A program made the position numbers and the translations under genes. Below, piece after piece: positions 7,478-61,459 of a stretch of DNA of 64,000 bases. Source of the DNA: Eubacterium sp. (GTDB lineage Bacteria > Bacillota > Clostridia > Lachnospirales > Lachnospiraceae); assembly GCA_036343395.1 (NCBI GenBank), contig JAZASH010000002.1:12425-76424 (forward strand), given 5' to 3'. Numbering within the stretch: position 1 is the first letter of the stretch; the number at the start of each line of letters is the position of its first letter. A model generated the notes under the pieces. It was given only the letters and a program-made list of their open reading frames with translations, did not search any database and was not told the DNA's origin.

Positions 7478-10099
7478 ATGAAGACGATTTTTCCGAAAGA
7501 GTACTTTTTGGATGAGGTACGTGATGGTTTCTATATTGATCCATTGATGAAGAAAAATTGGGCAATGTCTATCCATGCGTTGGAAACTCTGGAAGACCTG
7601 GCAGATCGATCAGGGTGGGTTGTATCCGTGATGTTCGGAACTTTGCTTGGTGTAGTACGTTATGGAGGATTTATCCCCTGGGATGATGATGTTGACGCGG
7701 AGATACTCCGTGACGCTCTCGAGGACCTGAGGGCTCGAGAAGAACGGTCGGATATTCCCGATGGATTTGAGTTTTGGGATTTTTATAAGACAGGAGACAG
7801 TAATTTTATTCGAAAATGGGTTGATACGGCCTTCTTGACAGACCATAGTCGGATGATCACGGAGAGATATGGATTTCCGTATATTACTAATATTGACCTA
7901 TTTGTGCTGGATTATGCCCCTCGTGACGAACGGGAATTTGATATATATACATCTGTGATTGGAACATTGGCGTATCTACGTTCTCTCCTTGAAGCTGTTG
8001 GTGAGAATGAGTCAATGTCTCTCTTTTTGGAGACATCAGAGGGACAAGAGTTTAATAAGAGTCTATCAAAGATTGAAGATCTGACGGGTACCGGTTTTGA
8101 TCGATCTAGTCGGATTGTTTTATTTAATCAGCTGATGAGGGTGATGGATCAGATATGTGGCAGGTATCGCTCGAATCAGAGTGATCGAATCCTATCTGTC
8201 CCCTATTATTTCAAGCCCTGCAAGGCGATTTTCCCCAAAAGCTTTTATGATGAGTATATCGATATGCCGTTTGAGAATACGGTGGTTAAGGTGCCGATCG
8301 GATATGATGGATTGTTGAGGAAATACTATGGAAACTATATGAAGCCATCGTTTGCGCAGTCTGCACATGGTTACCCGTATTATGACGGTTTGGAAGGAGA
8401 GATGGAGCGGCTCCTAGGGGTGAGATTGGTTCATTATCATCCGGATTTACGGCAGATCCGGGAAGATTTTCAAAATATTATCAAAAAAGAGTCTTTAAGA
8501 GAAACAGTGGAATCTGGATGTCTGTTACTCCGAGAGGCTCATCAGTATTTGTTGACGGGGATACAGGACGAGAATACTGATCTGGCTGGGCTTTCTGATC
8601 TTTTGATTCAGTGCCAGGATTTGGCAATACAGCTCGGGAACGCTATTGAGAAACGTGCAATCAGACCGTCTGAGTCCGTACAAATGCTGGAAGTATACTG
8701 TGAGTCGGTTTATGCTCTATATCAGCAAATGATTGATGGTGTTAGCCGAGATACACTGATGGATGGGGCTGCAAAGCTACAGACCAGGGGAAACGGCCTG
8801 ATTACCGCCATGTCTGACATTGGTCAGGAAAAGAAAACGGTTATCTTTGTATGTCGGTGTCCGGAAGACTGGAAGAGCATTCATACGTTATGGGAGTTAT
8901 ACGAACGTGACGGGATGTATGAAACCGTGGTGATTTCGGTTCCGTATTATTATCGCAATTATGACGGGAGTGTTTCCAGAGATGATATGGTCTGCGAAAC
9001 GGAAGGGTATCCCGAGGGGATCGTTTTGACTGCATATGATGCTTATGACTTTGAAAACGAGAGTCCGGACATCCTTTTTTTTCAGTTTCCTTATGATGAG
9101 TATCATGAGACGATATCGCTTCATCCATTTTATTATGCGAAGAGTCTTCGAAAATACGCGCAAAAACTGGTATTGATTCCTCCCTTTTTTTTACGTGAGG
9201 TAGGGGAGAACCAACGTGCGGCATATATGCTTCGACAGTATCTGAGGACGCCGGGATTTTTCTATGCTGACACGATAATTCTGCAATCTGATACAATGAG
9301 GGCATTTTTTGTAAAAGAACTGGATGGTTTTTTGGATGAATTGTCCGGGGCGGATGAAGAGATCAAGAAATGGTTCGACTTTGAAAACAGAGTGCTCGGA
9401 ACAGGATGCCCGCGTGCTGACTGGTTGAGCCGGGATCGATTGTTGTTCGGACTAACAGACGACGAGGATTCATTCATGGATAAAGCGGGGGATCGTGTCA
9501 GTATAACACCCTATGCTAGGGTGATACGGATCCCCGAGGAATGGATGACTTGTCTGCAAAGGCAGGATGGCAGCTTACGGAAAGTAATCGGGTTTTATAT
9601 CAGTGGAAGTATGCTGTTAGGATATGGCATAAAAGCGATTGAAAAGATGAAAACGGTCATGGAGTTATTTTGTTCCATGGATGATCTTGTACCGCTTTGG
9701 ATAGCAGATCCGTATGCCAAGAGAATACTGAGGAAACGTGATCCCGATGCGTGGAAGATGCTTCGTGCCTGGATGGATGATTATAGGGCTTCCGGGCGAG
9801 GAATCCTGGATGAGTCCGGAGAGATTGAAAGAGCGGCGGCGCTTTGTGATGGGTTCTATGGGGATGGATGTCAAACTATGAACCGGTGCCGTGAGATGAG
9901 AAAACCGGTCCTCTTTGATGCGCCATTAAAGCCTGTGGATACGAGTATGAGCCTCGAGGGAAAACGTTGGACAGACGGAATGACTGTCGAGGCTGAGGCA
10001 GACTGGAGAATCCCGGACTTTATTGATGCGGTAATTAATTACAGTCCGCGGGAACGAGAGGCTTCTGTCTCTGAGAACATCTATGATGCTTTGAAATGA
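7478..10099 (+). CDS. LicD-family phosphotransferase fused to a long C-terminal (TagF/GT-B-like) domain
   Basis: GTLLGVVRYGGFIPWDDDVD...IDLF LicD motifs; C-terminal domain shared with 12129, 14393 and 18632. Confidence 0.8.
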   Translation: MKTIFPKEYFLDEVRDGFYIDPLMKKNWAMSIHALETLEDLADRSGWVVSVMFGTLLGVVRYGGFIPWDDDVDAEILRDALEDLRAREERSDIPDGFEFWDFYKTGDSNFIRKWVDTAFLTDHSRMITERYGFPYITNIDLFVLDYAPRDEREFDIYTSVIGTLAYLRSLLEAVGENESMSLFLETSEGQEFNKSLSKIEDLTGTGFDRSSRIVLFNQLMRVMDQICGRYRSNQSDRILSVPYYFKPCKAIFPKSFYDEYIDMPFENTVVKVPIGYDGLLRKYYGNYMKPSFAQSAHGYPYYDGLEGEMERLLGVRLVHYHPDLRQIREDFQNIIKKESLRETVESGCLLLREAHQYLLTGIQDENTDLAGLSDLLIQCQDLAIQLGNAIEKRAIRPSESVQMLEVYCESVYALYQQMIDGVSRDTLMDGAAKLQTRGNGLITAMSDIGQEKKTVIFVCRCPEDWKSIHTLWELYERDGMYETVVISVPYYYRNYDGSVSRDDMVCETEGYPEGIVLTAYDAYDFENESPDILFFQFPYDEYHETISLHPFYYAKSLRKYAQKLVLIPPFFLREVGENQRAAYMLRQYLRTPGFFYADTIILQSDTMRAFFVKELDGFLDELSGADEEIKKWFDFENRVLGTGCPRADWLSRDRLLFGLTDDEDSFMDKAGDRVSITPYARVIRIPEEWMTCLQRQDGSLRKVIGFYISGSMLLGYGIKAIEKMKTVMELFCSMDDLVPLWIADPYAKRILRKRDPDAWKMLRAWMDDYRASGRGILDESGEIERAAALCDGFYGDGCQTMNRCREMRKPVLFDAPLKPVDTSMSLEGKRWTDGMTVEAEADWRIPDFIDAVINYSPREREASVSENIYDALK

Positions 10100-10131
10100 C
10101 GACATATGTTTACCAATAGAAATGGAGATTT

Positions 10132-11232
10132 ATGGAGATATCGGTTTGTATTATTACAAAGAATGAGAGAAAAAAGTTGGAACGATGCTTGACATGTCTG
10201 AAGCCTTCCGGCTTTGAACTCGTCGTGGTCGATACCGGCTCAGAGGATGGCTCAGTTGACATGGCTCGTGGATTCACAGACAGTGTCTTTGATTTTTGTT
10301 GGATCGATGATTTTGCCGCGGCTAAAAACTATGCGATTTCTAAGGCTAAGCATGATATGGTTTTGATTGTGGACAGCGATGAATACTGGATTGAAGGGCA
10401 GATTGAGCCCTTTTTGCAACAGGTTGAGAAATACAATGCTTATGTGGGACGGATCACACGTAGAGAGAGCTTTCGGACAGAAACCGGTGATAAAGGGGAA
10501 AGCATCGTCGGGGCAGAGAGAGTTTTCGATAGGAGACGATACCACTTTGCCGGGAGGATCCATGAACAGGTCGTCGAGGGTAGTGTTTTTGACGAAAACC
10601 GCGATGATACTCGAGATGCGATACGCAGGCAAAAATCTCCTGTCAAAGTCTATGATACAGGTCTTTTGTTCGACCATGACGGATATGATGGGACACAGGA
10701 AGACAGGAAGAAAAAGGCTGAGCGGAATCTTCGTTTGTTAATGGATGAGCATCGGCTGGTGCCTGAGGATGTTTACATCATCTACCAGATTGCGAAGAGT
10801 GTCTATTTCACGGATGGAGCTACCGAAGCGATCCGATGGTATGAAAAAGCATTGGATCACGGTGTGGATCCGGAAAAAGAATGGGGAGTCGATCTTATCA
10901 CCTGTTATGGGTACGCACTTTTGGAAGTACAGCAGTATGAACGAGCCACGAACCTCGAGCGATACTATGGCCCACTTAGTGAGCAGGCAGATTATCTGTT
11001 TCTGATGGGATTGATTTTTATGAATACAGCTCAGTTTGAGCGGGCGATAAACGAGTTTATACGCTGTACTCAGTTGTCAAATGCACGTGCTGCAGGGGTG
11101 GACTCGTATAAGGCATTTTACAACGCCGGTGTGATCGAGGAGTGCCTCGGACATCGAGAGATAGCGGCCTCGTACTATCAGAATGCCGGGGACTATGAAC
11201 CGGCAAGAAAAGGACTGGAACGAGTGAAATAG
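10132..11232 (+). CDS. GT2 glycosyltransferase with TPR-like C-terminus (candidate flagellin O-glycosyltransferase)
   Basis: ISVCIITKNE...VVVDTGSEDGS...DDFAAAKN...DSDE...GRIHEQ, then TPR-like helices. Confidence 0.85.
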   Translation: MEISVCIITKNERKKLERCLTCLKPSGFELVVVDTGSEDGSVDMARGFTDSVFDFCWIDDFAAAKNYAISKAKHDMVLIVDSDEYWIEGQIEPFLQQVEKYNAYVGRITRRESFRTETGDKGESIVGAERVFDRRRYHFAGRIHEQVVEGSVFDENRDDTRDAIRRQKSPVKVYDTGLLFDHDGYDGTQEDRKKKAERNLRLLMDEHRLVPEDVYIIYQIAKSVYFTDGATEAIRWYEKALDHGVDPEKEWGVDLITCYGYALLEVQQYERATNLERYYGPLSEQADYLFLMGLIFMNTAQFERAINEFIRCTQLSNARAAGVDSYKAFYNAGVIEECLGHREIAASYYQNAGDYEPARKGLERVK

Positions 11233-11242
11233 AGGAATGTGT

Positions 11243-12118
11243 ATGAAACCAGATAGTGATTTTTATAAGGAAGAATACCGGTCGGATCATCTGGTCACTG
11301 CAAAAATGAAACGGATTTGGGCAGTGGAGATGGAACTACTTGAAAAGTTTGATGAAGTCTGTCGCAAGCATGAAATACGGTATTATCTGGAATTCGGGTC
11401 TTTGCTGGGAGCCGTGAGACATCGAGGATTTGTTCCCTGGGATAATGATATCGATGTTTCTATGATGAGGCGGGATTATATGCGCTTTATGGAGGTGGCA
11501 AGAGGAGAGTTTCAGGAGCCCTATGTGTTGCAGGATGGAGCGAACGGGTACGGTTTCTTTCCGTTTGCAAAGCTTTTGAAATCCGGAACGACCGCATTGG
11601 AGATTCCTGATGCTCCTCCTGGTTATCATCAGGGAATTTTTATCGATATATTTCCTTTAGATGTGGTTCCGGATGGATCTGCCGAGAGTATAGCTATCTA
11701 TCAGGCGGAAGTCGAGCTTTGGACTACGATTGTCGATCCTATCGGTATGTGTGATCAGATTGATGAGGGGGTGCAGTATCGCATAGGAAATGACACCGTG
11801 ATCGATCTGGTACAGCGTCAGCCTGTGGAACGGTATCATGAATTTGAGCAGTTGTGTTTGGATTTTTCGGAGGAGAGCGAGAAGGTCAATGTTCTTCCTT
11901 TCCACATAAGGAAAGCAATCCGTGAGAGAAAGAGAGACTGGTACGGAGAACCGGTTTATCTACCGTTTGAGTGGCTGAACCTGCCATGCCCTTCGCATTA
12001 TCATGAAGTACTGACGGCGGAATACCGGGATTACATGACACCGATTAAAGGAAGGTCAGGTCACGAAAAGATTTTTTTTGACCCGGATCGGTCTTATCTG
12101 GAATACTTGAAACATTAG
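11243..12118 (+). CDS. Stand-alone LicD-family protein
   Basis: GSLLGAVRHRGFVPWDNDIDVSMMRRDY...GIFIDIFPLD. Confidence 0.85.
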   Translation: MKPDSDFYKEEYRSDHLVTAKMKRIWAVEMELLEKFDEVCRKHEIRYYLEFGSLLGAVRHRGFVPWDNDIDVSMMRRDYMRFMEVARGEFQEPYVLQDGANGYGFFPFAKLLKSGTTALEIPDAPPGYHQGIFIDIFPLDVVPDGSAESIAIYQAEVELWTTIVDPIGMCDQIDEGVQYRIGNDTVIDLVQRQPVERYHEFEQLCLDFSEESEKVNVLPFHIRKAIRERKRDWYGEPVYLPFEWLNLPCPSHYHEVLTAEYRDYMTPIKGRSGHEKIFFDPDRSYLEYLKH

Positions 12119-12128: not shown

Positions 12129-14381
12129 ATGGAAATAACAGTATCACCAGAATATTTTTTGGATGAAGTGAGAGACGGATTTCTCGTTCCTACGATGATG
12201 AAAAAAGCCTGGGCGATCGATCTGAAGAATTATATGATTCTGGATGAGTTATGCCAACGGTTGGGGATTTCCTGTACAGTGATGTTTGGTACGTTGATGG
12301 GAGCGATACGTCACGGAGGATACATTCCATGGGATGATGACATCGACTGTGAGATTTTACGCACTGAGTACAGAAAGCTGAAGGAGTATGAGGAAAACGG
12401 ACAACTTCCGGAGGATTATCATATCCGAGATTATGAAAAGTCCGGAAATGACAATCTCGTCAGAAAGTGGATGGACTCTCCGGACTCTGTGAGGGACGCT
12501 GAGAAGTGGGAGAGCAGTTTTGGGTTTCCTTTCGCTAATAATGTGGATATTTTCCTGACGGATTATCTGCCGAGAGACCCAAAGGAGGAACAGTACTACC
12601 AGGATGTCGTGGATGTTATATCTCAGGTTAAATTGGTGACCGATGACATCATCGAACATCAGAGACGCGGCATACCGCTTGAAGAAAGCGCAGAGAAACT
12701 GGATGCGGTCGATCGGGAAGAGTATGCTTATAATCTGGATTTGCTTCAGCGTGTATTGAAGATCCAGTTTGACCTGAGAGGCCAAACTTCACTTATCGGA
12801 CAGCTATGGAAGGTAATGGAGGATTTTTGTGAGAAACAAGACAGGGGGCGCTGCGATCGTATCGTATCGCTACCTTACTACATGAAGGACAAAAAGAAAG
12901 CGTTTCCCAGAGAATTCTATGAGGATACGGTAGAGATGCCCTTTGAATTCGGTACTGTTCGTGTTCCAATCGGGTATGACGGAATACTGAGAAGATACTA
13001 TCGTAACTATGGTGTTCCGATCATCCAGTTATCGACCCATGCTTACCCCTTTTATACTCAGTTGGAGAAGGATATGCGTGAGAGGTTCGGAAGTGAACTT
13101 TTACGCTATCGTCCGAATTGGGATGAAGTTGAAGGGATGCAGGAACAAATTCGGATAAAACGTGATCAATACAGAAGAAACAGAGATGAAAACAGAAGCG
13201 ATGATCGAAAGCGCGAGGTTGTCTTCTTAGTAGATCGAGCCGTGAATTGGTGTGCCTACCATGCCCTGTGGGAGCAAGAAAGGAACAGGGAGGACACGGA
13301 TGTTGTTGTGATCACTGTTCCGTATTTTTGGTGCAAATTCAACGGTCAGTTTGATACTGAGCATATGATCATAGAGACGGAAGGATTTCCGGATGAGGTT
13401 ACTCTGACAGCCTTTGACAGTTATGATTTTGAGGAGAGACACCCGGACGCCATTTATTTTCTGAATCCATACGATGATTATAGTTATGCGATGTCGGTCC
13501 ATCCGTTTTTCTACTCGAGCAATATCGTTCAATATACGGATGAATTGGTCTTTGTCACACCGTTTCTGCTGCGGCCGATCCCGCCAAAAGATATGCGATC
13601 ACGGTATACGCTGGGAATTTATCTTCATAATCCCGGGATGGTGTATGCGGATCGGGTTCTCGTTCAATCTGCAGCGATACGAGAGGTTTGGATTGAATTG
13701 CTGAAAAAATTGGATCCGGACGGAGTAATCAACTGGGAAAGCAAAATCGAAGCAGTAACACTTCCGATCGCAGAATATGAAGTCCGAAAGCGAGTCTTGA
13801 TATCTCCGGAAAGGAGTCCCCGAGATACATGGGATGAAAACGGAGAATGCGTAATGCCGACTTTTTTTGATGTGGTTCATGAGGTACCTGAAGACTGGTT
13901 GAATCTTGTGCTGGATGAGAACAAAAGAAAAAGAAGAATAGCAGTAGTACACTTCAGTGCCGGAGTTCTTTTTGAGCATGGAGCCGGAAGCCTTGATAAA
14001 GCCCGTACGTTTTTTGATATAGCTGAAGAAGCAGGTTTTACGATCTGGTGGTTTTCTGACCGAAACATGAGACGCATCCTGCGGAAGAATAACCAGGAAG
14101 CATGGAGAGAATACCAAAGATTTTCTGATGAATTCCGGGGAGCTGGACGAGTTATCTGGGATGACAGCGGTAACGAGGTTCGGGCTGCTGATATCGGCGA
14201 TGTATTCTTTGGTGATGTGTCTACCTTGATGTCTGCCTTTCGTACACGTAAGAAACCTGTCCTGTGGGAAACGCCTGACGTGGAAACGCTGGCAGATACA
14301 GATGATACTGCAGTACGAGAGTGGAAAGGTGATATCGTAACAGAGGGAGATTGGACAGCAAAAGAGTTTGTGAGGCTATGA
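12129..14381 (+). CDS. LicD-family fusion protein
   Basis: GTLMGAIRHGGYIPWDDDID; C-terminal YDFEERHPD...NPYD...SVHPFFYS domain. Confidence 0.8.
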   Translation: MEITVSPEYFLDEVRDGFLVPTMMKKAWAIDLKNYMILDELCQRLGISCTVMFGTLMGAIRHGGYIPWDDDIDCEILRTEYRKLKEYEENGQLPEDYHIRDYEKSGNDNLVRKWMDSPDSVRDAEKWESSFGFPFANNVDIFLTDYLPRDPKEEQYYQDVVDVISQVKLVTDDIIEHQRRGIPLEESAEKLDAVDREEYAYNLDLLQRVLKIQFDLRGQTSLIGQLWKVMEDFCEKQDRGRCDRIVSLPYYMKDKKKAFPREFYEDTVEMPFEFGTVRVPIGYDGILRRYYRNYGVPIIQLSTHAYPFYTQLEKDMRERFGSELLRYRPNWDEVEGMQEQIRIKRDQYRRNRDENRSDDRKREVVFLVDRAVNWCAYHALWEQERNREDTDVVVITVPYFWCKFNGQFDTEHMIIETEGFPDEVTLTAFDSYDFEERHPDAIYFLNPYDDYSYAMSVHPFFYSSNIVQYTDELVFVTPFLLRPIPPKDMRSRYTLGIYLHNPGMVYADRVLVQSAAIREVWIELLKKLDPDGVINWESKIEAVTLPIAEYEVRKRVLISPERSPRDTWDENGECVMPTFFDVVHEVPEDWLNLVLDENKRKRRIAVVHFSAGVLFEHGAGSLDKARTFFDIAEEAGFTIWWFSDRNMRRILRKNNQEAWREYQRFSDEFRGAGRVIWDDSGNEVRAADIGDVFFGDVSTLMSAFRTRKKPVLWETPDVETLADTDDTAVREWKGDIVTEGDWTAKEFVRL

Positions 14382-14392
14382 GGAGATTCGAG

Positions 14393-21013: not shown

Positions 21014-21068
21014 AACTATGAGAAGGCCAAATCTACGATGCTCTACGCATAGATGGAGGATAGAAAAC

Positions 21069-44315: not shown

Positions 44316-44323
44316 GGTTTTAT

Positions 44324-47002: not shown

Positions 47003-47021
47003 TTGATATTGAGGATGAAAA

Positions 47022-50544: not shown

Positions 50545-50567
50545 TCTGACAGAGGGAGTTGGACGCG

Positions 50568-51730: not shown

Positions 51731-52474
51731 ATGCCAATGCATGGGAAAACTGTTATCATTACGGGCTGTAACAGGGGGATCGGAAAGGCGATTTTGGAAG
51801 GGATGGCTAGGAGAGGAACGGACATCATCGCGATCATCAGGGATAAAAAGCCGGATTTTGAACAATTTAGTGAAGAAATGGCACGTGAATGCGATGTTAG
51901 TATTCGTATGGTATATGCGGATTTTTCGGATGAAGAGGCTGTCAAGGCGGCTGCAAAGCAGATTATTCAGATGAAATGCCCGATTGACGCGATTGTCCAT
52001 AATACTGCTGTGGCGAATGAGTCGAGATCCTATATGATGACCGGCGTTGATGAGATGAAGCGTGTTTTCCAGATCAATTTTTTCTCACCGATTCTGTTGA
52101 CACAGCTACTGGGGCGCCAGATGATCAGGGCAAAGAAAGGGAGTATCGTTTTTATTGCGTCTGCCGCGATTTATGACGCGTGGGGAAATCTGGAGTATAC
52201 CGCCAGTAAGGCGGCAGTGGCGGGAGCCGTGAAGAGGCTTGCCAGAGAGATGGGGGCTTACGGTGTAAGGGTTAATGCTGTTGCACCCACGCTGACCGAG
52301 ACGGAGATGGCGGAGAAGATGAGCAAGGAGGATCAGGATGTGATCCTTTCGAGAAATATCATGCATCGGATGGGAAAGCCGGAGGAGATAGCAGATGCCG
52401 TTGCCTATCTGACGTCGGATGAGTCTGGGTTTATAACCGGACAGATTCTCCGTGTAGACGGTGGCTTGTTGTAA
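51731..52474 (+). CDS. SDR oxidoreductase
   Basis: TGCNRGIG; YTASK; VNAVAPTLTET; LRVDGG. Confidence 0.9.
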   Translation: MPMHGKTVIITGCNRGIGKAILEGMARRGTDIIAIIRDKKPDFEQFSEEMARECDVSIRMVYADFSDEEAVKAAAKQIIQMKCPIDAIVHNTAVANESRSYMMTGVDEMKRVFQINFFSPILLTQLLGRQMIRAKKGSIVFIASAAIYDAWGNLEYTASKAAVAGAVKRLAREMGAYGVRVNAVAPTLTETEMAEKMSKEDQDVILSRNIMHRMGKPEEIADAVAYLTSDESGFITGQILRVDGGLL

Positions 52475-52487
52475 TCGGAGGGAACAG

Positions 52488-54278: not shown

Positions 54279-54291
54279 GGAGGGATTGTTC

Positions 54292-54531
54292 ATGACTAAT
54301 CTTGAGAAATATGATGCGGCGTTCCGGCAGGCGTTGGCACTTGATGATGAATATGATGTCACAGGTCTACGATACCAGGCGATTCCGTCGTGGGATTCCG
54401 TGGGACATATGGGATTGGTTGCCTGCCTGGAGGACAGCTTTGGATTCGTGTTTGATGTCGATGATATGATAGACTTGGACTCTTATGAGAAGGGGATTGA
54501 GCTACTGAAAAAATACGACATTGAGATTTGA
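54292..54531 (+). CDS. Acyl carrier protein 3
   Basis: WDSVGHMGLV motif; similar to ACP 2. Confidence 0.88.
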   Translation: MTNLEKYDAAFRQALALDDEYDVTGLRYQAIPSWDSVGHMGLVACLEDSFGFVFDVDDMIDLDSYEKGIELLKKYDIEI

Positions 54532-54550: not shown

Positions 54551-55153
54551 ATGACGGACTATGAATATGTCACGATCTCTCCACCTGACAGAGATCAAGG
54601 AAGAAGACTGAGTTATGACGGTTTTTCTCTCCTGGACCGTGTTGTCGATGTTGAGGTAAAGAGTACCCAGGTTCAGGGATTGAATCGGTATCGGTTTACC
54701 ATTTCAAAGGAGTCGGTGTCAGAAAAAAAGGAAGAGATGCTCGCCATTTGTTCCGAGGCGTATGTCAATGATTACAGGTTCTATGTTTCAGGCGAAAGAT
54801 CGGATCCAGATGCAGTGGCTCGAATGAGGGATTTGATCGGTCAGTTAGAGCATCCGGGAACGATCCTTTTGTGGGTGGAATATCGCGAAAACGGAATAGG
54901 GTTTCTGGCGCTGACATCGGAGGAGGATGCAATGCGAATCACATTGGCAGCAGTCCTTCCGAAATATCAGGGAAGCGGAGTGGCTCTTGAGTTGTATACG
55001 AAAGGGATACTGGTAGCCGCTGAGGCTGGGATGAACCGGGTTATCGGTCGGATATCCACGACAAACACCGCAGTGATGAATCTGTATTCGCATCTGGGGG
55101 CCAAGTTTACTTCTCCGATGGATGTCTACGTCAGGAAACAGGAAGGAAAGTGA
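54551..55153 (+). CDS. GNAT family acyltransferase
   Basis: ITLAAVLPKYQGSGVA...ISTTNTAVMNLYSHLG. Confidence 0.8.
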   Translation: MTDYEYVTISPPDRDQGRRLSYDGFSLLDRVVDVEVKSTQVQGLNRYRFTISKESVSEKKEEMLAICSEAYVNDYRFYVSGERSDPDAVARMRDLIGQLEHPGTILLWVEYRENGIGFLALTSEEDAMRITLAAVLPKYQGSGVALELYTKGILVAAEAGMNRVIGRISTTNTAVMNLYSHLGAKFTSPMDVYVRKQEGK

Positions 55154-55159: not shown

Positions 55160-56236
55160 ATGAAGCTGGATGACTGGTTTGAACTGGATCCGTATGGGCT
55201 GGAACAGGGAGAAAAGGGAGTAAAGACTGCGGATTATATGAGGGAGTTGTGCCGCTATCACTATGAAGCCTGTCCGGAGTATAAAGCAATTCTGGACACA
55301 CTGGGTGTAGATATAGAGGAAATCGATTCACCGGAAATGGTTCCCTATGTACCGGTTCGATTATTTAAAAACCATTATCTGCACAGTGTGCCCGAGGAGG
55401 AGATCACCCGTGTGATGACATCGTCGGGGACGACCGGACAACAGGTTTCACGTATAGCTTTGAGCGCGGACAATGCCAAGGCGCAGCAGAAGGCGCTGTC
55501 CAGGATCGTGGCTTCCTATGTTGGGGAAAACCGGTTGCCACTCATGATTCTTGATTCTAAGAGAGCCATCAAGGATCGCAAGATGTTTTCGGCAAGGGGG
55601 GCGGGAATCCTCGGCTTTTCCATATTTGGTAAGGATACTACATATGCGCTTGATGAGGATATGAAGCCGGATTTGGGAGTAATCGAGGAGTTTCTGAAAA
55701 AGCACGGTGATGAGCCAATCCTTTTATTCGGGTATACCTATATGATCTGGAAGGAGTTTTATCTCAACCTGAAGGAAGCGGGACAAAAAGTCGACTTTGG
55801 GAAAGGATCAAGACTATTTCATGTAGGCGGATGGAAAAAACTACAGGATCTGGCCGTGGATAAGGATGAATATGCAGGCAGTCTCAGGGAACAGTGTGGG
55901 ATTGAGTTTGTTCATAACTATTATGGAATGGCGGAACAGCTGGGGTCTATTTTTGTTGAATGTGAAGAGGGACATCTGCACACCAGTATCTATTCTGATG
56001 TGATCATCCGGGATTCGGAGGATTTTTCTGAGGTATCGGACGGAGAGGCTGGATTGATGGAGGTGATGTCTGTATTGCCGACATCCTATCCGGGGCATGC
56101 TATCCTGACCGAGGATAAGGGAAGAATCCTGGGAGTTGACGACTGTCCCTGTGGAAGGAAAGGGAAATACTTTGAGATATTGGGCAGGATCGCACGAGCA
56201 GAGGTGAGAGGCTGCAGCGATACTTATCAAGGATGA
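55160..56236 (+). CDS. Acyl-protein synthetase (LuxE family)
   Basis: TSSGTTG...HVGGWKK...YYGMAEQ...YPGHAILTEDKG...GRIARAEVRGCS. Confidence 0.88.
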   Translation: MKLDDWFELDPYGLEQGEKGVKTADYMRELCRYHYEACPEYKAILDTLGVDIEEIDSPEMVPYVPVRLFKNHYLHSVPEEEITRVMTSSGTTGQQVSRIALSADNAKAQQKALSRIVASYVGENRLPLMILDSKRAIKDRKMFSARGAGILGFSIFGKDTTYALDEDMKPDLGVIEEFLKKHGDEPILLFGYTYMIWKEFYLNLKEAGQKVDFGKGSRLFHVGGWKKLQDLAVDKDEYAGSLREQCGIEFVHNYYGMAEQLGSIFVECEEGHLHTSIYSDVIIRDSEDFSEVSDGEAGLMEVMSVLPTSYPGHAILTEDKGRILGVDDCPCGRKGKYFEILGRIARAEVRGCSDTYQG

Positions 56237-56255
56237 TTGTCAAGGAGGAGCACGT

Positions 56256-57434
56256 ATGGATATATTGGCCGGTGTTAAGCCGGAGGAGATTGTTGTAAAA
56301 CCGTTAAGACCGTATTGCGATATAGTTTGTGATTTTTTTAATGATTGGAGCCGGTTGATGAGATCTCATCCTGAGGGAAGACGCCTTGGTGATGTGGTTT
56401 CTTTTGCTTTTTTTTGCCGAAAAGGAAATCTAGAGCGTTTGAGGGAAGAGGCGCATATTGAGGACTTGCGGATGGGACGAGGGTTGTGCTTCCATATCGC
56501 ACCGTCCAATATTCCGGTTAATTTTGCGTTTAGTTATGCATTTGGTCTCCTTGCGGGGAATGCCAATATCGTCAGAGTTTCGAGCAAGGCTTTTTCTCAG
56601 GTGGATATCATATGTGATACTTTAAATAAGTTGTTTGAGGATGATAGGTATGAGGCGATTCGCCGTATGACATCCATCGTGAGATATGACCACGATTCGG
56701 AAATTACGGACAGGCTTTCCGGTATGTGTGACATACGATTGATATGGGGAGGTGACGAGACGATAGCTGCTATACGAAGGTCTATTCTCAAACCGGGAAG
56801 CACTGAGATCACCTTTGCGGATAGGTATTCGATTGCGGTTATCGATGGGAAAACGGTTCGTAGTGCATCGGAGGAGGAACTGGAGAAGTTGGCCGGTGAG
56901 TTCTACAACGATACATATATGATGGATCAAAATGCTTGTTCATCACCTCAGATGATATACTGGATCGGAGCGGAGAAGGCGGACAAAGACAGGTTCTGGG
57001 ATGCAGTTAGTCAAACCATAGAGGGGTATGATGTAAGTGAGTTCATTGCCAGTGAGAAATATACTATGCTTTGTGATGATGCGATCGTTCAGCAGGGAGT
57101 GGGAAGACTGAAAAAGTATCAAAACAAACTGTATGTTGTTGATATTCCTGCGAATGCTGACGTGGATATGCTGGATGGTTGTCACGGGAAATACGGCCTT
57201 TTTTGCGAACAGGAGATCGATGGTATTTTGGAAATACTGGATTCAATCGACCGCAAGGTTCAGACCTGCACTTACTATGGAGTGGATGCAAGGGGGCTTG
57301 CCGAGCAGGTTTTGGACCAGGGTGTGACGGGGATCGATCGAATCGTGCCAATAGGGAAAGCGTTGGATATTGGAGTGTACTGGGATGGATATGATCTGGT
57401 CAGACAGATGAGTCGGAGGATAGAGGTAGTATGA
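56256..57434 (+). CDS. Acyl-CoA reductase (LuxC family)
   Basis: HIAPSNIPVNFAFS...GLLAGNANIVRVSS...DQNACSSP...GIDRIVPIG. Confidence 0.88.
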   Translation: MDILAGVKPEEIVVKPLRPYCDIVCDFFNDWSRLMRSHPEGRRLGDVVSFAFFCRKGNLERLREEAHIEDLRMGRGLCFHIAPSNIPVNFAFSYAFGLLAGNANIVRVSSKAFSQVDIICDTLNKLFEDDRYEAIRRMTSIVRYDHDSEITDRLSGMCDIRLIWGGDETIAAIRRSILKPGSTEITFADRYSIAVIDGKTVRSASEEELEKLAGEFYNDTYMMDQNACSSPQMIYWIGAEKADKDRFWDAVSQTIEGYDVSEFIASEKYTMLCDDAIVQQGVGRLKKYQNKLYVVDIPANADVDMLDGCHGKYGLFCEQEIDGILEILDSIDRKVQTCTYYGVDARGLAEQVLDQGVTGIDRIVPIGKALDIGVYWDGYDLVRQMSRRIEVV

Positions 57435-58198
57435 ATAGCATTAAAAGGCAATTATTGGATTCTCTGAGAAAACTGGAAGAGTATCATGGCGTGGAGGCAA
57501 TAAAGGCAGAGTTTGAGGCGGAGGGTTCTCGACTCGACGAGCTTATCATGTTGAACGAGGTTGTTTTTCGGGCGGATATGGAGCTGATTATCAAAATCGG
57601 CGGATGTGAGGCTGTGAGAGATTTGGACCAGTGCAAGCTGCTCGGGGCATCAGGGGTGATGGTACCGATGATCGAGACGCCATTTGCCATGGAAAAGTTT
57701 ATCGGTGCGTATCACAAGGTGTACGGGGAGGAGACTTCGGCTGAAAGGATTATCAATGCGGAGACGATTACCTGCCTGGAAAACTATGATGAGATACTTA
57801 GCCGGGGGAAGGGATTCCTTACCGGTGCTACCGTGGGACGGAGTGATCTGTCTGCGTCTATGGGGATAGATAAATCGGATATCGAAAGCGATGCGGTTTT
57901 TGATGCCACGATGGAGTTTGTCAAGAAATCAAGGAATGCGGGTTTAGTTACGAATTTCGGCGGTGGAATCGGAGTAGAATCGATTCCGTTTATCATAAGG
58001 ATGAGTCCATTTATCGACCGTTTTGAAACCAGAAAGGTTGTGATCCGATCCAGCGAAGATTCGGATTGGTTGAAGAAAACGATACAGGAGGCGTTGCGAT
58101 TTGAATTGCTGTACCTTGAATACAAAGCCAGCTATTATGATGCAATGTCGAAGGAGGATTCAAAGAGAATGAAACGGTTGAAAGGGCAGCTTAACTAA
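57431..58198 (+). CDS. HpcH/HpaI aldolase/citrate lyase family protein
   Basis: KAEFEAEG...KIGGCEA...VPMIET...INAET...GRSDLSASMG. Confidence 0.75.
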   Translation: MNSIKRQLLDSLRKLEEYHGVEAIKAEFEAEGSRLDELIMLNEVVFRADMELIIKIGGCEAVRDLDQCKLLGASGVMVPMIETPFAMEKFIGAYHKVYGEETSAERIINAETITCLENYDEILSRGKGFLTGATVGRSDLSASMGIDKSDIESDAVFDATMEFVKKSRNAGLVTNFGGGIGVESIPFIIRMSPFIDRFETRKVVIRSSEDSDWLKKTIQEALRFELLYLEYKASYYDAMSKEDSKRMKRLKGQLN

Positions 58199-58254: not shown

Positions 58255-59550
58255 ATGAAGACAATTTATACCTGCTTTTGTACAGATATTATCCATGAGG
58301 GACATATGAACATCCTTCGTGAGGCGGCAAAGTATGGTCGTGTTGTGGTTGGTGTACTTTCGTCGTCTCAGATGATGCTCTATAACCGTTTCCCGACGAA
58401 GACAACTGTGGAGAGGGTTGAGATGATCCGCGCGATTGATCTAGTGGCTGAGGTGATTGTTCAGAAGACGATCATGTATGATGATGTGATCGGTGAACTG
58501 CATCCGGACTACGTGATCCATGGTGATAACTGGAATGGAGAGTGGATGGAGAGGATTCGTCAGAATATCGTCTCGCTACTTGAACCATATGGTGGAAAAC
58601 TTATTGAGGTTTCTTTTACCAGAAGCCCTGAGATTACACGTATCGATCGGTTGATGGAGCAGAAACTGGCTATGCCGGAGTTTCGTAGACATCGTTTGCG
58701 CCGCGTGATGGAGTTGACACCGATCGTAAAGACGATTGAGGTACATTCGGGATTGACCGGGTTGATCGCGGAGCACACGCAGGTGGTTGATGAGAAATCG
58801 ATCGCTCAGTATGATGCAATGTGGATTTCATCGCTCTGTGACTCGACGGCAAAGGGAAAACCGGATATCGAACTGGTTGATATGACGTCGCGTTTTCATA
58901 CCATTGATGAGGTAATGGAGGTTACGACGAAGCCAATCATTTTTGACGGTGATACCGGTGGTTTGACAGAGCACTTTGTCTATACAGTGAGGACGTTGGA
59001 GCGGATGGGAGTTTCGGCGGTGATTATTGAGGATAAGATTGGGTTGAAGAAGAATAGTCTCTACGGAACAGAAGCGGGGCAGACTCAGGCGTCGGTTGAA
59101 GAGTTCTGTGAGAAACTTCGCGCCGGGAAGAATGCACAACTGTCGGATGACTTTATGATCATCGCTCGCGTGGAGTCTCTGATCTTGGAACGGGGGATGG
59201 CGGATGCGCTTTCTCGTGCTTTTGCATATCGAGATGCTGGTGCGGACGGTATCATGATACACAGCCGTCAGAAGTCGCCGGATGAGATATTGGAGTTTTG
59301 CGATAAGTTTAGAGAGTTCGATAAGGATACACCGTTGGTTGTTGTTCCGTCGTCGTATAATACCGTTACGGAGGACGAGTTGGCAGTTCATGGGGTGAAT
59401 ATCGTGATTTACGCAAATCAGCTTCTTCGTGCAGCGTTCCCGGCGATGAAGAAGGTGGCGCAGAGTATCCTCAAGTATCATAGAGGGGCAGAAGCGGATG
59501 AGGATCTGATGCCCATTGATGAGATCTTGGGATTGATTGAGCAGTTGTGA
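58255..59550 (+). CDS. pepM: Cytidylyltransferase-phosphoenolpyruvate phosphomutase fusion (AepX type)
   Basis: N-terminal DIIHEGH; PepM motifs W.SSL.DS..KGKPD, DGDTGG, EDKIGLKKNSL, ARVESLI, YANQLLRA. Confidence 0.93.
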   Translation: MKTIYTCFCTDIIHEGHMNILREAAKYGRVVVGVLSSSQMMLYNRFPTKTTVERVEMIRAIDLVAEVIVQKTIMYDDVIGELHPDYVIHGDNWNGEWMERIRQNIVSLLEPYGGKLIEVSFTRSPEITRIDRLMEQKLAMPEFRRHRLRRVMELTPIVKTIEVHSGLTGLIAEHTQVVDEKSIAQYDAMWISSLCDSTAKGKPDIELVDMTSRFHTIDEVMEVTTKPIIFDGDTGGLTEHFVYTVRTLERMGVSAVIIEDKIGLKKNSLYGTEAGQTQASVEEFCEKLRAGKNAQLSDDFMIIARVESLILERGMADALSRAFAYRDAGADGIMIHSRQKSPDEILEFCDKFREFDKDTPLVVVPSSYNTVTEDELAVHGVNIVIYANQLLRAAFPAMKKVAQSILKYHRGAEADEDLMPIDEILGLIEQL

Positions 59551-59565: not shown

Positions 59566-60306
59566 TCAAATCACAGTTAGGGCCTGTAGTTCTTCCGGGG
59601 TGTCGACTTCATAGAGGTCGTCATTGCCTACGGGGAAGATGGTTAGGTTCAGTTTGTCGAGGTTTTGATTTACGACATCATCCCAGAAGAGGTTCTCGGT
59701 TCCTGGGGTATTATATGATTCTATGATAGCATCGGCTAATACGGTGCTATCGTTTTTATTGAAGTAGGAGAGGCCGACCATCATGTGGGTGTCCATGCCG
59801 GATTTGCCAACGCGGGTGATGCGGCCGGTTTTGTCCGTGTCAAAGCACCAGTCGTCGGTGGGACCGGCGTGATACTTGGCAAAGTAGCCGGAGATGCGAT
59901 CACGCTTGGTTGTCACATGAGCAGAGTGGTCGTCCTCCGCATGCTTAGCGGTAGCATATGATAGGATGTTTTGCTTCTTGATGTAAAGGTCTGCTTCGCA
60001 TATGAAACAATCCTCACCTCGGAGCGTGTCTACAGCGACGTAGAGGGAGGAGAGATTGTTTTTTGTCTCGTATTCTGGGTTGTGGACAAGATGGACCTCT
60101 TGGTGTTTTTCTGTGAGTGTGGCGAATTGGTCTGCTTTGTACCCTGTCACGATGTAGATGTCTGTGACGCCGTAGTTTTCGAGAGCGGATATGACGGTCT
60201 CGATGAGCATCGTGTCGCCGACTTTAAGAAGGGGCTTTGCTGTGGTTTCTGTGAGTGGGCGCATGCGCATGCCCATGCCGGCAGCGAGCAGGATTCCGAT
60301 AGCCAT
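59566..60306 (-). CDS. LicC/PntC-like nucleotidyltransferase (candidate CMP-phosphonate synthase)
   Basis: ILLAAGMGMRMRPLT...PKPLL-like KPLLKV...NNLSSL...FWDDVV...EVDTPEEL; co-transcribed with the AEP transaminase. Confidence 0.8.
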   Translation of the reverse strand: MAIGILLAAGMGMRMRPLTETTAKPLLKVGDTMLIETVISALENYGVTDIYIVTGYKADQFATLTEKHQEVHLVHNPEYETKNNLSSLYVAVDTLRGEDCFICEADLYIKKQNILSYATAKHAEDDHSAHVTTKRDRISGYFAKYHAGPTDDWCFDTDKTGRITRVGKSGMDTHMMVGLSYFNKNDSTVLADAIIESYNTPGTENLFWDDVVNQNLDKLNLTIFPVGNDDLYEVDTPEELQALTVI

Positions 60307-60307
60307 A

Positions 60308-61459
60308 TTATTCCTCCGTATACTTTGCGGGTATCTGAACCCTGTTTTCTTTTAGCGCAGCTTCGAACACTTCCCAGAAGTTTTCTATATCGGGGGCGTC
60401 TATCGCTCCAAGGGCGCAAAGGCGGAATGAGCCAGTGTTTTCCAGCTTTCCCGGATAGATGGTGAAGCCGCGTTCGTAGCAGTAGTCGTGTACTTTGTCA
60501 AAATCCCAATTCGGATCGTCGGGATAGCGAATCGCCGAGACGAGTCCGGACTGGTTCTTTCTGTCGAGCAGTTCTCTGAATCCAAGTCGATCGACGCCGG
60601 CGCGGATGGCGTTGATGATGCGCTGGTGACGCGACCATTTTTCTGACTCCCCTTCGGCGAAGTATTCGTCGAGAGCCTGGCGTGCGGCGTAGATGGTCTG
60701 CACCGGTGGTGTGAAGTGCATCTGGCCGGTTTTCTCGAAAAACTCGTACTGCAGATAGAGGTTGCAGTAGTAGGAGCGAGTCGGGTTTTGCTTCGACTTC
60801 TCGATGAGGTCGGTGCGACCGATGATGTAGGACAGACCGGTCATGCCCTGGATGCCTTTTTGCGCAGATGCCATGCAGAAGTCGATGTTGTCTTTTTCGA
60901 TATCTATGGGGATCATCGCGTAGGATGATGTAGTGTCGGTGATGAAAACTGCGTCGTGTTCGTGCGCAATGCGGCCGATCTCTCGGATTGGATTGAGGAG
61001 ACCGGAGCCGGTCTCGTGGTGTGTGGCGTAGACAACAGCGATGTCGTTTTTCTTAGTAAGAATGTGCTCGAGCTCGGCGAGATTCGGGGGCTTGTAAAGG
61101 GACTGCACCCAATCGACGTATGGGATATGGTAGGCGTCCAAGATTTCGCAGGCGCGCTCGGAGTAGGCGCCGTTGTGGATGACAAGGGCGCGGGGCGTGC
61201 CGTCGGGTGAGTCCGGTACCAGGGAGTTTAGCACGATGTCCATGCAGATGGTGCCGGAGCCGCAGAATGGGACAGCGGTGTAGGTTTCCGGGTCGCCGTG
61301 GACGATCTTGACGAGATCGTCGCGGATATTTTTCATAAGGAAAGCGAACTCCTCCTCGCGTGGACAGATGTCGGGGACGATCTGAGCGGCTTTTACCGTA
61401 TCGGTCGTCGTGGACGGGCCCGGGTTTAGAAGGATGTTGCGTTTGATCGGTGTGGTCAT
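60308..61459 (-). CDS. phnW: 2-aminoethylphosphonate aminotransferase
   Basis: ILLNPGPSTT...DICPRE...GSGT...HHETGSGLLNP...DTTSSY...SAQKGIQG...HFTPP; GAGGTG RBS before ATG 61459. Confidence 0.9.
   Translation of the reverse strand: MTTPIKRNILLNPGPSTTTDTVKAAQIVPDICPREEEFAFLMKNIRDDLVKIVHGDPETYTAVPFCGSGTICMDIVLNSLVPDSPDGTPRALVIHNGAYSERACEILDAYHIPYVDWVQSLYKPPNLAELEHILTKKNDIAVVYATHHETGSGLLNPIREIGRIAHEHDAVFITDTTSSYAMIPIDIEKDNIDFCMASAQKGIQGMTGLSYIIGRTDLIEKSKQNPTRSYYCNLYLQYEFFEKTGQMHFTPPVQTIYAARQALDEYFAEGESEKWSRHQRIINAIRAGVDRLGFRELLDRKNQSGLVSAIRYPDDPNWDFDKVHDYCYERGFTIYPGKLENTGSFRLCALGAIDAPDIENFWEVFEAALKENRVQIPAKYTEE

Follow-up and report, generated by a model that had tools for sequence, protein, structure and literature searches.

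The window examined here (64,000 nucleotides, positions 12425–76424 of contig JAZASH010000002.1, referred to as contig C2 of genome G000 in our survey) belongs to Eubacterium sp. GCA_036343395.1, a member of the Lachnospiraceae with a 2.48-Mb draft genome of 313 contigs that is 95% complete, and contains a gene island that directly follows two flagellin genes and probably serves flagellin modification. The window starts with late flagellar genes in the order FlgL-like, FliW, FlaG, FliD, FliS and FlgN-like, followed by two flagellins of the short type (270 and 271 aa) that are 96% identical to one another. A terminator hairpin and a sigmaA-like promoter are seen in the sequence directly after flagellin 2, and the island begins 120 bp past this gene. 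Between 7478 and 59550 there are 44 genes on the same strand (41 open reading frames (ORFs) of at least 90 aa and three smaller ones, two for acyl carrier proteins (ACPs) and one Mor-like), with intergenic distances mainly of −4 to +30 bp, and a convergent pair on the opposite strand (59566–60306 and 60308–61525) closes this part of the window. An earlier note on this stretch had described the same 44 co-oriented, mostly tightly packed genes and convergent pair, and its total of 46 and its coordinates agree with the ORF listing. Protein families were called by Pfam and NCBIfam scans of all 46 proteins, and membrane proteins by a hydropathy scan; the gene content that had been proposed (LicD, GT2 with tetratricopeptide repeats (GT2-TPR), Maf/DUF115, NeuC/B/A-like, ACP/KASIII, Sat/CysC, Ppm and 2-aminoethylphosphonate (AEP) transaminase) is recovered in these scans, the DUF115 call being marginal. 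Glycosyl- and phosphotransferases account for about a third of the island genes. Ppm, the five LicDs, the KASIIIs, the ACPs, the radical SAM enzyme, CysC and Sat all retain their catalytic motifs. The features, in window coordinates, are as follows.

5312–5339 (+): SigD/sigma-28-type promoter motif of flagellin 1, TTAA-N16-ACCGATAT
5404–6216 (+): flagellin 1, 270 aa, short type (Flagellin_N and Flagellin_C)
6399–6425 (+): SigD-type promoter motif of flagellin 2 (motif scan)
6542–7357 (+): flagellin 2, 271 aa (Pfam)
7478–10099 (+): LicD and GT-B-fold fusion, paralogue 1, 873 aa (LicD match; paralogy; DxDxD intact)
10132–11232 (+): GT2-TPR, GmaR-like candidate flagellin O-glycosyltransferase (Pfam; PDB match to GmaR, E 1.3e-21; weak SunS-family match)
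11237–12118 (+): stand-alone LicD, 293 aa (Pfam; DNDID motif)
12129–14381 (+): LicD and GT-B fusion, paralogue 2, 750 aa (Pfam; AlphaFold2 model of the C-terminal domain; Foldseek)
14351–17413 (+): LicD and GT-B fusion, paralogue 3, 1020 aa, with an extra C-terminal extension (Pfam; paralogy)
17423–18613 (+): GT-B glycosyltransferase, Glyco_trans_1_2 and DUF3880 (Pfam; homologues flank flagellins in G241 and G261)
18632–21013 (+): LicD and GT-B fusion, paralogue 4, 793 aa (Pfam; paralogy)
21018–22031 (+): GT2 glycosyltransferase (Pfam)
22039–23118 (+): asparagine-synthase-like PP-loop amidoligase lacking a glutaminase domain (45% homologue beside a TagD-like gene in G275)
23120–23530 (+): TagD-like cytidylyltransferase, 136 aa (Pfam)
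23551–25011 (+): TagF-like phosphotransferase, weak Glyphos_transf (E 1.2e-4, just under cut-off)
25066–26127 (+): member of a family with no Pfam or NCBIfam match, paralogue of 28669 (27% identity)
26202–26229 (+): internal SigD/sigma-28-type promoter motif, TTAA-N16-GCCGATAT
26368–27525 (+): NeuC, hydrolysing UDP-N-acetylglucosamine (GlcNAc) 2-epimerase (TIGR03568, 395 bits; cut-off 236)
27529–28662 (+): Maf-like DUF115/MptE-like protein, 377 aa, candidate nonulosonate transferase (Pfam, 37.1 bits; cut-off 34.6)
28669–29658 (+): uncharacterised protein, paralogue of 25066, faint GNAT-like N-terminus (sequence comparison)
29739–29963 (+): acyl carrier protein 1 (EWDSL motif)
29985–31016 (+): KAS III, FabH-like, C/H/N triad intact (Pfam; motif)
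30976–31752 (+): short-chain dehydrogenase (SDR), ketoreductase type (Pfam)
31776–32012 (+): acyl carrier protein 2 (likely start inside ORF 31674–32012)
31996–33672 (+): KAS III with a second partial KAS III-like domain, 558 aa (Pfam; self-comparison)
33593–35444 (+): split transketolase-like pair, N-terminal and pyrimidine/C-terminal subunits (Pfam)
35463–37418 (+): uncharacterised 651-aa protein, first low-G+C gene (faint PglD_N-like N-terminus, RfaG-like GT-B C-terminus)
37415–38137 (+): uncharacterised 240-aa protein (faint WecD-like acyltransferase)
38267–39412 (+): DegT/DnrJ/EryC1 sugar aminotransferase (Pfam)
39409–40824 (+): radical SAM enzyme, twitch/SPASM domain (CxxxCxxC motif)
40849–42693 (+): sulfatase-fold (alkaline-phosphatase superfamily) protein with Thr at the nucleophile position, paralogue 1 (profile comparison)
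42659–43249 (+): adenosine 5′-phosphosulfate (APS) kinase, CysC (Pfam; P-loop)
43179–44315 (+): ATP sulfurylase, Sat (HxxH and GRDHAG motifs)
44312–44575 (+): Mor-family small transcription activator, 87 aa (Pfam)
44716–45981 (+): CPA2-family transporter, the island's only membrane protein (Pfam; hydropathy)
46031–47002 (+): pyruvate-kinase barrel domain only, 323 aa (Pfam; NCBIfam)
47022–48836 (+): sulfatase-fold Thr-nucleophile protein, paralogue 2, last low-G+C gene (paralogy)
48815–49816 (+): polysaccharide-deacetylase family protein (Pfam)
49840–50544 (+): CMP-nonulosonate synthetase-like protein, NeuA/PseF-like (below cut-off)
50559–51602 (+): NeuB-type nonulosonate synthase (NeuB model 353 bits, below the cut-off of 400; PseI model 202 bits)
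51731–52474 (+): short-chain dehydrogenase 2 (Pfam)
52461–54278 (+): acetolactate-synthase-like thiamine diphosphate (ThDP) enzyme, not Ppd (Pfam; NCBIfam)
54286–54531 (+): acyl carrier protein 3 (small-ORF listing)
54551–55153 (+): GNAT acyltransferase (Pfam)
55160–57434 (+): LuxE-like acyl-protein synthetase and LuxC-like acyl reductase (Pfam; NCBIfam)
57431–58198 (+): HpcH/HpaI aldolase-like protein (Pfam)
58255–59550 (+): cytidylyltransferase–phosphoenolpyruvate (PEP) mutase fusion, Ppm (TIGR02320, 403 bits; cut-off 320; EDKIGLKKNS)
59566–60306 (−): NTP_transf_3/LicC-type nucleotidyltransferase, PntC-like (PF12804/PF00483)
60308–61525 (−): 2-aminoethylphosphonate aminotransferase, PhnW/AepZ (TIGR03301, 437 bits; cut-off 361)
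61593–63790 (no strand assigned): probable insertion, with an AAA_14/DUF4143 ATPase (−, 61593–62888), a MazE/RelB-like gene (+, 63248–63790) and 25-nt repeats at its flanks

The right-hand border of the island as first described is a window-edge effect, and the island continues past the window. Of the earlier estimate of ~54 kb, the gene content stands and the right border proves artificial: a Ppd gene starts 13 bases beyond the window end, at C2:76437–77735 (window-equivalent 64013–65311), and is directly followed by FliB, a flagellin lysine-N-methylase, at C2:77775–79001 (65351–66577, the second gene in the range 64013–66577; NF038110, 107.9 bits, cut-off 85). The next gene encodes an AMP-dependent ligase, a weak homologue of which (25% identity) lies within the flagellin island of G215. 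If Ppd, FliB, probably the AMP-ligase and two inserted genes are counted, the full extent is at least 61 kb and about 51 genes. The inserted genes sit between the AEP transaminase and Ppd and comprise the divergent ATPase and the MazE/RelB-like gene; a 25-nt repeat (consensus about GTGAAAATGCAGATTTACCCCACGA, 33-nt spacing) occurs five times next to the ATPase gene, with three copies upstream (62940–63030) and two downstream (63832–63889) of the MazE/RelB-like gene. The stretch looks like an inserted cassette dividing the phosphonate genes.

With the AEP transaminase, Ppd and FliB taken in, the predicted AEP pathway has all of its steps, and flagellin-specific genes stand at either end of the locus. 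Ppm consists of a PF01467 cytidylyltransferase fused to a PEP mutase with the EDKxxxxxNS motif, and Ppd scores 408.5 bits against the TIGR03297 cut-off of 312.5 in the whole-genome search. The Ppm–Ppd–AEP transaminase–cytidylyltransferase route is therefore complete at the level of gene families, LicD-type transferases are also present, and the substrate specificity of each enzyme is predicted. The ALS-like ThDP enzyme at 52461 had been a candidate for the phosphonopyruvate decarboxylase and was rejected, since it reaches only 31.9 bits with TIGR03297 and the canonical enzyme lies just past the window; the apparent absence of a decarboxylase is thus another effect of the window edge. Ppd itself carries a repetitive 'GSEVARMRS.DGSEVA' insert near its C-terminus.

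Several features of the island point to flagellin as the acceptor. The GT2-TPR protein at 10132 aligns over residues 3–146 to the catalytic domain of Listeria GmaR (E 1.3e-21, PDB sequence search) and has TPR repeats; GmaR is the Listeria flagellin O-GlcNAc transferase. The second candidate, the Maf-like protein at 27529, directly follows NeuC behind a SigD-type motif. It is only 377 aa long, its DUF115/MptE-like score is barely over the cut-off, and it has neither an NCBIfam nor a PDB sequence match. The two proteins are accordingly put forward as candidate flagellin-directed glycosyltransferases on the basis of their sequence relationships. To examine the regulatory context, the genome was scanned on both strands with the strict SigD motif TTAA-N15-17-CCGATA[TA], which gives 13 matches in 2.48 Mb, among them both flagellin promoters and the internal motif at 26202–26229, 140 bp upstream of neuC and ahead of neuC-maf; the odds of a chance occurrence within the 240-bp spacer before neuC are roughly 6 in 10,000. 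A loose sigma-28 scan, with one mismatch allowed per half, returned 458 genome matches and was discarded as uninformative. One strict-motif site, on the same contig and 10 kb upstream, precedes a small gene whose N-terminus we tentatively read as FlgM-like, and a further one (C2:84042–84067) lies past the window, upstream of a 423-aa protein with a hydrophobic N-terminus, which suggests that the flagellar regulon may extend past the island.

Enzymes for lipid-carrier priming, polymerisation and export of a glycan were not recognised in the island. No match to Wzx, Wzy, ABC-2 or Bac_transf/WecA-type families was found among the 46 island proteins in the Pfam scan, and none to an LCP ligase, lipid-carrier priming transferase or ABC exporter. 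In 45 of the 46 proteins there is no transmembrane segment, the sole polytopic one being the CPA2-family protein at 44716–45981. Both the internal sigma28 promoter and the lack of Wzx/Wzy/Wzm/Wzt or a priming transferase had been read from the sequence at the outset; the former coincides with a strict motif that is shared with both flagellin promoters, and the latter agrees with the family scan for flippases and polymerases, in which the 46 proteins gave no match.

Four of the five LicD genes encode proteins of 750–1020 aa that share a C-terminal domain of about 390 aa, for which Pfam gives no match in the four window copies. About 15 of 89 homologues of this domain carry a precomputed PF04464 assignment, and one is named as CDP-glycerol glycerophosphotransferase family. 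The AlphaFold2 model of the domain of paralogue 2, built from a 52-sequence alignment, has a predicted local distance difference test (pLDDT) score of 86 and exhibits a GT-B fold, and its best Foldseek matches in the PDB are UDP-GlcNAc 2-epimerases, LpxB, a heptosyltransferase and the Hib capsule polymerase multienzyme (8a0m), with TagF absent among the matches listed. A PDB sequence search with a profile of the domain gave nothing useful. As hhalign of the domain against the island's TagF-like protein is not significant (probability 1.4%), the two are not claimed as one family. From the model, the domain is read as a transferase of the GT-B fold that would use a nucleotide-activated sugar or alditol phosphate, which would make each long LicD a two-headed transferase.

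The distribution of this domain was followed in a sample of one genome for each of 300 other Lachnospiraceae genera together with the present genome, 301 in total. Alone or fused, it occurs in 65 genomes, all of which have flagellin (157/301 overall; hypergeometric P 1.3e-22, uncorrected for phylogeny), and none of the 144 non-flagellated genomes in the sample has it. At least 29 of the 64 other carriers have it on the same contig as a flagellin gene, 0.2–56 kb apart (28 of them within 32 kb), where about 8% is estimated to be expected by chance; this count is a lower bound, the assemblies being fragmented. A scan of genome contigs with the same domain had given two loci only, and the family-genome search was far more informative. 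The Maf-like protein has homologues in 30/301 genomes (25/30 flagellated), and several of these lie within flagellin islands, namely those of G213, G046, G009, G247 and G222. Ppm is present in 37/301 genomes, of which 29 are flagellated.

Flagellin-adjacent islands with LicD, Ppm and Ppd are encountered in four other genera, and the recurring modules appear in varied order. In G219 three flagellins are followed by a GT2-TPR, LicD, a long LicD, a sulfatase-fold protein, the Ppm fusion, Ppd and a CysC-like gene. The G213 island runs from FliW through flagellin to a GT2-TPR, a long LicD, a TagD-like gene, LicD, two Maf-like genes, a CysC-like gene, the Ppm fusion and Ppd, and that of G215 has flagellins, then an AMP-ligase, LicD, the Ppm fusion, Ppd and a NeuA-like gene. 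Behind the flagellin of G261 lie a GT2, a DUF3880 glycosyltransferase, Ppd, the Ppm fusion, NeuA, NeuB, ACP, KASIII and SDRs, and behind those of G241 LicD, NeuB, NeuC, NeuA and a long LicD. In Lacrimispora sp. GCA_002367105.1 a flagellin and then a GT2 precede a homologue of the LicD-fused domain, 820 aa in length. The one further genome from the genus of the present bacterium (G080:C15, L028–L030) has a longer flagellin frame of 475 aa with no island gene on the 44-kb flagellin contig, and neither Ppm nor the LicD-fused domain was found in that genome. The island is thus species-specific within the genus, and absence of this kind is in keeping with the hypervariability that flagellin glycosylation islands should show.

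The nonulosonate branch comprises NeuC, which scores above its NCBIfam cut-off, and NeuB-like and NeuA/PseF-like proteins, which score below theirs. Gram-positive Maf enzymes can transfer Neu5Ac to Ser/Thr of flagellin (bioRxiv 10.1101/2020.06.03.131540). No 4,6-dehydratase of the PseB/LegB/PglF type is present in the island, the genome's only strong Polysacc_synt_2 gene being that of a 649-aa protein on another contig. Pseudaminic (Pse) or legionaminic (Leg) acid was considered as the product and judged unlikely for want of such a dehydratase, and a neuraminic-acid-type (Neu) sugar is the likelier one.

Two genes for sulfate activation, encoding CysC and Sat, lie in the middle of the island. 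The PAPS_reduct family is not represented in the genome, whereas all 14 control genomes have a member. Without a reductase for 3′-phosphoadenosine 5′-phosphosulfate (PAPS) or APS, the PAPS made here would not serve assimilation and would most simply act as a sulfuryl donor. APS-kinase-like genes about 32% identical to 42659 lie beside Ppm/Ppd in two sister islands (L015–L017, G219:C1; L018–L020, G213:C54), and ATP sulfurylase was not detected in the 60 kb fetched around each of them, so that the 'CysC' there may act on a substrate other than APS. The Mor-family gene at 44312–44575 is translationally coupled to the ATP sulfurylase gene, mid-island; regulators of the Mor type are usually phage-associated.

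The CysC gene is preceded by one of two paralogous genes (40849 and 47022) for proteins of ~600 aa that have a faint sulfatase match and no curated Pfam or NCBIfam model. A word-indexed homologue search with 40849 found nothing, a metagenome-contig scan with the two-paralogue alignment, for which the patterns were poorly chosen, found no relative, a single-sequence PDB search with 40849 gave nothing useful, and AlphaFold2 on the two-paralogue alignment yielded a mean pLDDT of 45, which is unusable. In a library of 1.8 billion proteins, 768 cluster representatives of the family were obtained at E up to 0.001, and a 50-member profile matches S1 sulfatases with an E of 2e-7. The residue that aligns to the formylglycine position is an invariant threonine, Thr269, and the Asp, His and Glu metal ligands are invariant too (D237, H366, E370, H372, D434 and H435). 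As the C/S-x-P-x-R formylglycine motif is missing and Thr269 takes its place, the proteins have the sulfatase fold and are not S1-type sulfatases. Within the alkaline-phosphatase superfamily, a Thr nucleophile marks the members that carry out phosphoryl transfer, among them LtaS, EptA/MCR-1, NPP and PhnA. The family is found in 10 of the 301 Lachnospiraceae genomes, all 10 flagellated, and co-occurs with Ppm in 7/10 against a baseline of 37/301 (P = 2e-5). Its gene lies a few kb from Ppm in G040:C11, G168:C4 and G219:C1, and inside the flagellin islands of G219, G143 and G008. The paralogues are put forward as the best candidates for a phosphonyl/phosphoryl transferase or a sulfuryl transferase, and the family as a candidate new phosphonate-related enzyme family.

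The acyl genes amount to three ACPs, two KASIII genes, two SDRs, a split transketolase, LuxE/LuxC, a GNAT and the ALS-like ThDP enzyme. The KAS III at 31996–33672 contains a second partial repeat, residues 394–470 of which match residues 74–148 of the neighbouring KAS III with 39% identity, an unusual duplicated architecture. A PDB sequence search with the uncharacterised protein at 28669 gave nothing useful.

The base composition of the island is not uniform. Each island gene is below the genome mean of 51.7% G+C, and a 12-gene block at 35463–48836 (~13 kb) has 34–42% G+C, distinctly lower than the island around it, for which a range of 42–54% was obtained. The G+C content changes exactly at gene borders, from 0.44 to 0.36 at 35463 and from 0.34 to 0.47 at 48815, and such sharp steps support stepwise acquisition. 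They suggest that the block is a recently acquired sub-island and the island a mosaic.

Taken together, the GmaR match, the missing export genes, the SigD motif, FliB, the 65 of 65 flagellated carriers of the LicD-fused domain and the sister islands support the proposal of the earlier note that a flagellin glycan is assembled in the cytoplasm. We consider it likely that this is a flagellin modification island, mainly for O-glycosylation, that would act in the cytoplasm before flagellar type III export. There is also good reason to regard flagellin as the probable main acceptor of the island chemistry; that every module ends up on flagellin is somewhat doubtful. A sequence of events can be proposed from the gene families and their arrangement. 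The two short flagellins would be expressed from their SigD-type promoters, and the GmaR-like protein (10132) would place an N-acetylhexosamine on Ser/Thr of the short exposed middle segment; in addition or as an alternative, the Maf-like protein (27529) may add a CMP-activated nonulosonic acid, for which NeuC, NeuB and the NeuA-like protein would supply a neuraminic-acid-type sugar. Further GT2 and GT-B transferases may extend the chain, and up to ten phosphotransferase-type domains (five LicD, four LicD-fused GT-B/TagF-like and one stand-alone TagF-like) would attach alcohol-phosphate and phosphonate head groups from CDP/CMP-activated donors. The TagD-like enzyme is a putative source of such donors, and Ppm, Ppd and the AEP transaminase, with the PntC-like or the Ppm-fused cytidylyltransferase, would lead to CMP-2-aminoethylphosphonate. 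The ACP/KASIII/ketoreductase and ACP/GNAT/LuxE/LuxC/ThDP-enzyme cassettes may make unusual N- or O-acyl groups, the twitch radical-SAM enzyme and the DegT aminotransferase an amino sugar, and the deacetylase would free an amine for acylation. Sat and CysC would make PAPS for sulfation, with the sulfatase-fold paralogues as candidate transferases (or for phosphonyl transfer), and FliB, just past the window, would methylate lysines.

A number of observations weigh against this reading. Enzymes such as LicD, TagD and TagF are a hallmark of teichoic-acid synthesis, and the gene for an exporter could lie outside the island. Flagellin is missing from 8 of the 36 other Ppm-positive genomes, which means that phosphonate is not exclusive to flagella in the Lachnospiraceae, and from 5 of the 29 other Maf-like-positive ones, the Maf call itself being marginal. 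The phyletic statistics ignore shared ancestry, and the genome is a draft in 313 contigs. None of the sulfotransferase families in Pfam was matched among the 46 island proteins, the low-G+C block, with its own Mor-type regulator and transporter, may be a separately acquired unit, and a glycan bearing all of the predicted groups would have to pass through the narrow flagellar export channel. One alternative is a locus of composite function, in which flagellin would be modified only by the proximal part (the LicD/GT array, TagD/TagF and NeuC-Maf) together with NeuA/NeuB, and the low-G+C block and/or the acyl cassettes would serve another acceptor or a small molecule. The sharp G+C steps at the 35463 and 48815 gene borders, the Mor-type regulator and the island's only transporter within the block, gaps with promoter-like sequences at 38137, 44575 and 51602, and the want of a sulfotransferase or acyl-transfer step tied to flagellin fit such a division. 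The block is, however, on the same strand as its surroundings, is joined to them by an 18-bp and an overlapping junction at its two ends, and comes between NeuC/Maf and NeuA/NeuB; export and lipid-carrier enzymes are absent from it; the carriers of its sulfatase-fold family are flagellated in 10 of 10 cases, with genes inside the islands of G219, G143 and G008; and CysC-like genes and ACP/KASIII cassettes are also found in other flagellin islands. A composite function is held to be improbable.

That the locus makes a teichoic-acid- or capsule-like envelope polymer and is merely a neighbour of the flagellins, the polymer being built on a lipid carrier at the inner membrane face with exporters encoded elsewhere, appears very unlikely, even though LicD, TagD/TagF-like enzymes and phosphonate tailoring are classic wall and capsule chemistry (Rice et al. 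2019, PMC6697681). Such a polymer would also accord with the capsule polymerase multienzyme 8a0m among the Foldseek matches of the LicD-fused domain and with the non-flagellated genomes among those positive for Ppm and the Maf-like protein, but the 46 genes include no priming transferase, flippase, ABC exporter, polymerase or LCP ligase and only one membrane protein, the GT2-TPR is GmaR-like, the LicD-fused domain is absent from the 144 non-flagellated genomes, and FliB and SigD motifs frame the locus. Ppm, ThDP enzymes, KASIII/ACP, LuxC/LuxE, radical SAM enzymes and transketolase pairs are common in natural-product clusters, and with the transporter they might be taken to indicate a cluster for a diffusible phosphonate or acylated natural product that lies beside the flagellar genes by chance. 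With about a third of the genes encoding glycosyl- or phosphotransferases, a nucleotide-sugar pathway, a phosphonate branch of the AEP cell-surface type (Ppm fusion, Ppd, AEP transaminase, LicC-type nucleotidyltransferase and LicD; PMC6697681) and the same modules recurring behind flagellin genes in other genera, this is extremely unlikely. Flagellin modification thus stays the favoured interpretation of the island.

Flagellin glycosylation islands are a known kind of locus, and the present one is an extreme, undescribed form, its combination of modules being absent from the literature searched. That search returned no paper on Lachnospiraceae flagellin glycosylation islands, nor one in which LicD is connected with the modification of flagellin. 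Rice et al. 2019 (PMC6697681) describe cytidylyltransferase–Ppm fusions and LicD-like transferases for cell-surface AEP and leave flagella unmentioned, and a survey from 2026 that covers flagellar glycosylation in Clostridium does not mention phosphonate, LicD, sulfate or teichoic-type genes. The Clostridioides difficile FliC type A glycan consists of GlcNAc and a phosphodiester-linked N-methylthreonine, and 2-AEP is found on a fraction of the sites, with no pepM in C. difficile (PMC8861647). The claim that no described flagellin glycan has the present combination holds, within the literature searched, for the combination as a whole and has to be narrowed for 2-AEP, which is already known on C. 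difficile FliC (PMC8861647); phosphonate on a flagellin glycan is thus chemically known, and no precedent was found for a genetic route or for the combination. The type A system (cd0240 with cd0241–cd0244) resembles the island in O-GlcNAc-type initiation, a short clostridial flagellin, a phosphodiester substituent, a TagF-like enzyme with a nucleotidyltransferase, and 2-AEP (PMC8861647). It differs in having five genes, no pepM and an unexplained source of AEP, a comparison made by description, whereas the present island has more than 46 genes, the complete predicted Ppm–Ppd–AEP transaminase–cytidylyltransferase route, five LicDs and nonulosonate, acyl-ACP and PAPS genes.

Listeria monocytogenes GmaR likewise combines GT2 and TPR, and its catalytic domain is the one matched by 10132, which in contrast sits in a very large extension and decoration locus. 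GmaR works alone, adds a single GlcNAc and doubles as an anti-repressor. The flagellar locus of Campylobacter jejuni NCTC 11168 has about 50 genes, including Pse/Leg pathways, a maf family, and acyl and amidino tailoring, and is similar to the island in its large, hypervariable set of soluble enzymes beside the flagellins, its Maf-type transferases (a Maf-like candidate in the island), its NeuB/NeuC/NeuA-type pathway and its acyl tailoring. No LicD/TagF-type phosphotransferases, phosphonate genes or PAPS synthesis are known from the C. jejuni locus, and the present island differs in that it has no PseB/LegB-type dehydratase and its nonulosonate is likelier of the Neu type. The flagellin islands of Pseudomonas syringae and P. 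aeruginosa have ACP, KAS III and ketoreductase genes, with N-3-hydroxybutyryl viosamine as the sugar, and share with the present one an ACP/KASIII/SDR cassette, predicted to provide the short hydroxyacyl group that N-acylates an amino sugar. The present island differs in having two separate acyl cassettes, whose three ACPs, double KASIII, split transketolase, LuxE/LuxC and ALS-like ThDP enzyme imply more elaborate acyl groups. The Pnt clusters (PMC6697681) have the same PF01467–Ppm fusion, Ppd, AEP transaminase, LicC-type nucleotidyltransferase and LicD-like phosphotransferases and are assigned to cell-wall glycans or lipids, whereas here and in four other genera these genes lie inside a flagellin island. 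The Maf sialyl- and legionaminyl-transferases of Geobacillus kaustophilus and Clostridium botulinum are a parallel for a Gram-positive Maf-like candidate near NeuB/NeuC/NeuA-type genes and flagellin (bioRxiv 10.1101/2020.06.03.131540). The protein at 27529 differs from them in its short length, marginal DUF115 score and want of a PDB sequence match.

The locus offers a predicted genetic source for AEP on flagellin, which has been seen chemically in C. difficile with no pathway to explain it, and two sizeable families of uncharacterised enzymes, the LicD-fused GT-B domain (65/301 genera) and the Thr-nucleophile sulfatase-fold family (768 cluster representatives, Ppm-linked). Soluble transferases that decorate a protein in the cytoplasm would be attractive for glyco-engineering. 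A more far-reaching proposition, which we offer tentatively and regard as rather unlikely, is that many flagellated Lachnospiraceae coat their filament with a teichoic-acid-like zwitterionic or anionic glycan that bears alcohol-phosphate, 2-aminoethylphosphonate and sulfate and is built by LicD–GT-B fusions and Thr-nucleophile sulfatase-fold proteins, two families never tied to flagella. If true, the sulfatase-fold proteins, acting via a covalent Thr intermediate, would be the first of the alkaline-phosphatase fold to transfer phosphonyl or sulfuryl groups in the cytoplasm. The island would then be the most combinatorial example of such a filament coating and would fill in the genetic route, so far missing, by which clostridial flagellins acquire AEP. 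Lachnospiraceae flagellins are dominant gut antigens, Crohn's-disease serum markers and TLR5 ligands, and the searched literature contains no paper on their post-translational state. Phosphodiester, phosphonate, sialic-acid-like and sulfate groups all over the filament would alter its charge, its antigenicity and its recognition by phages, and possibly host sensing.

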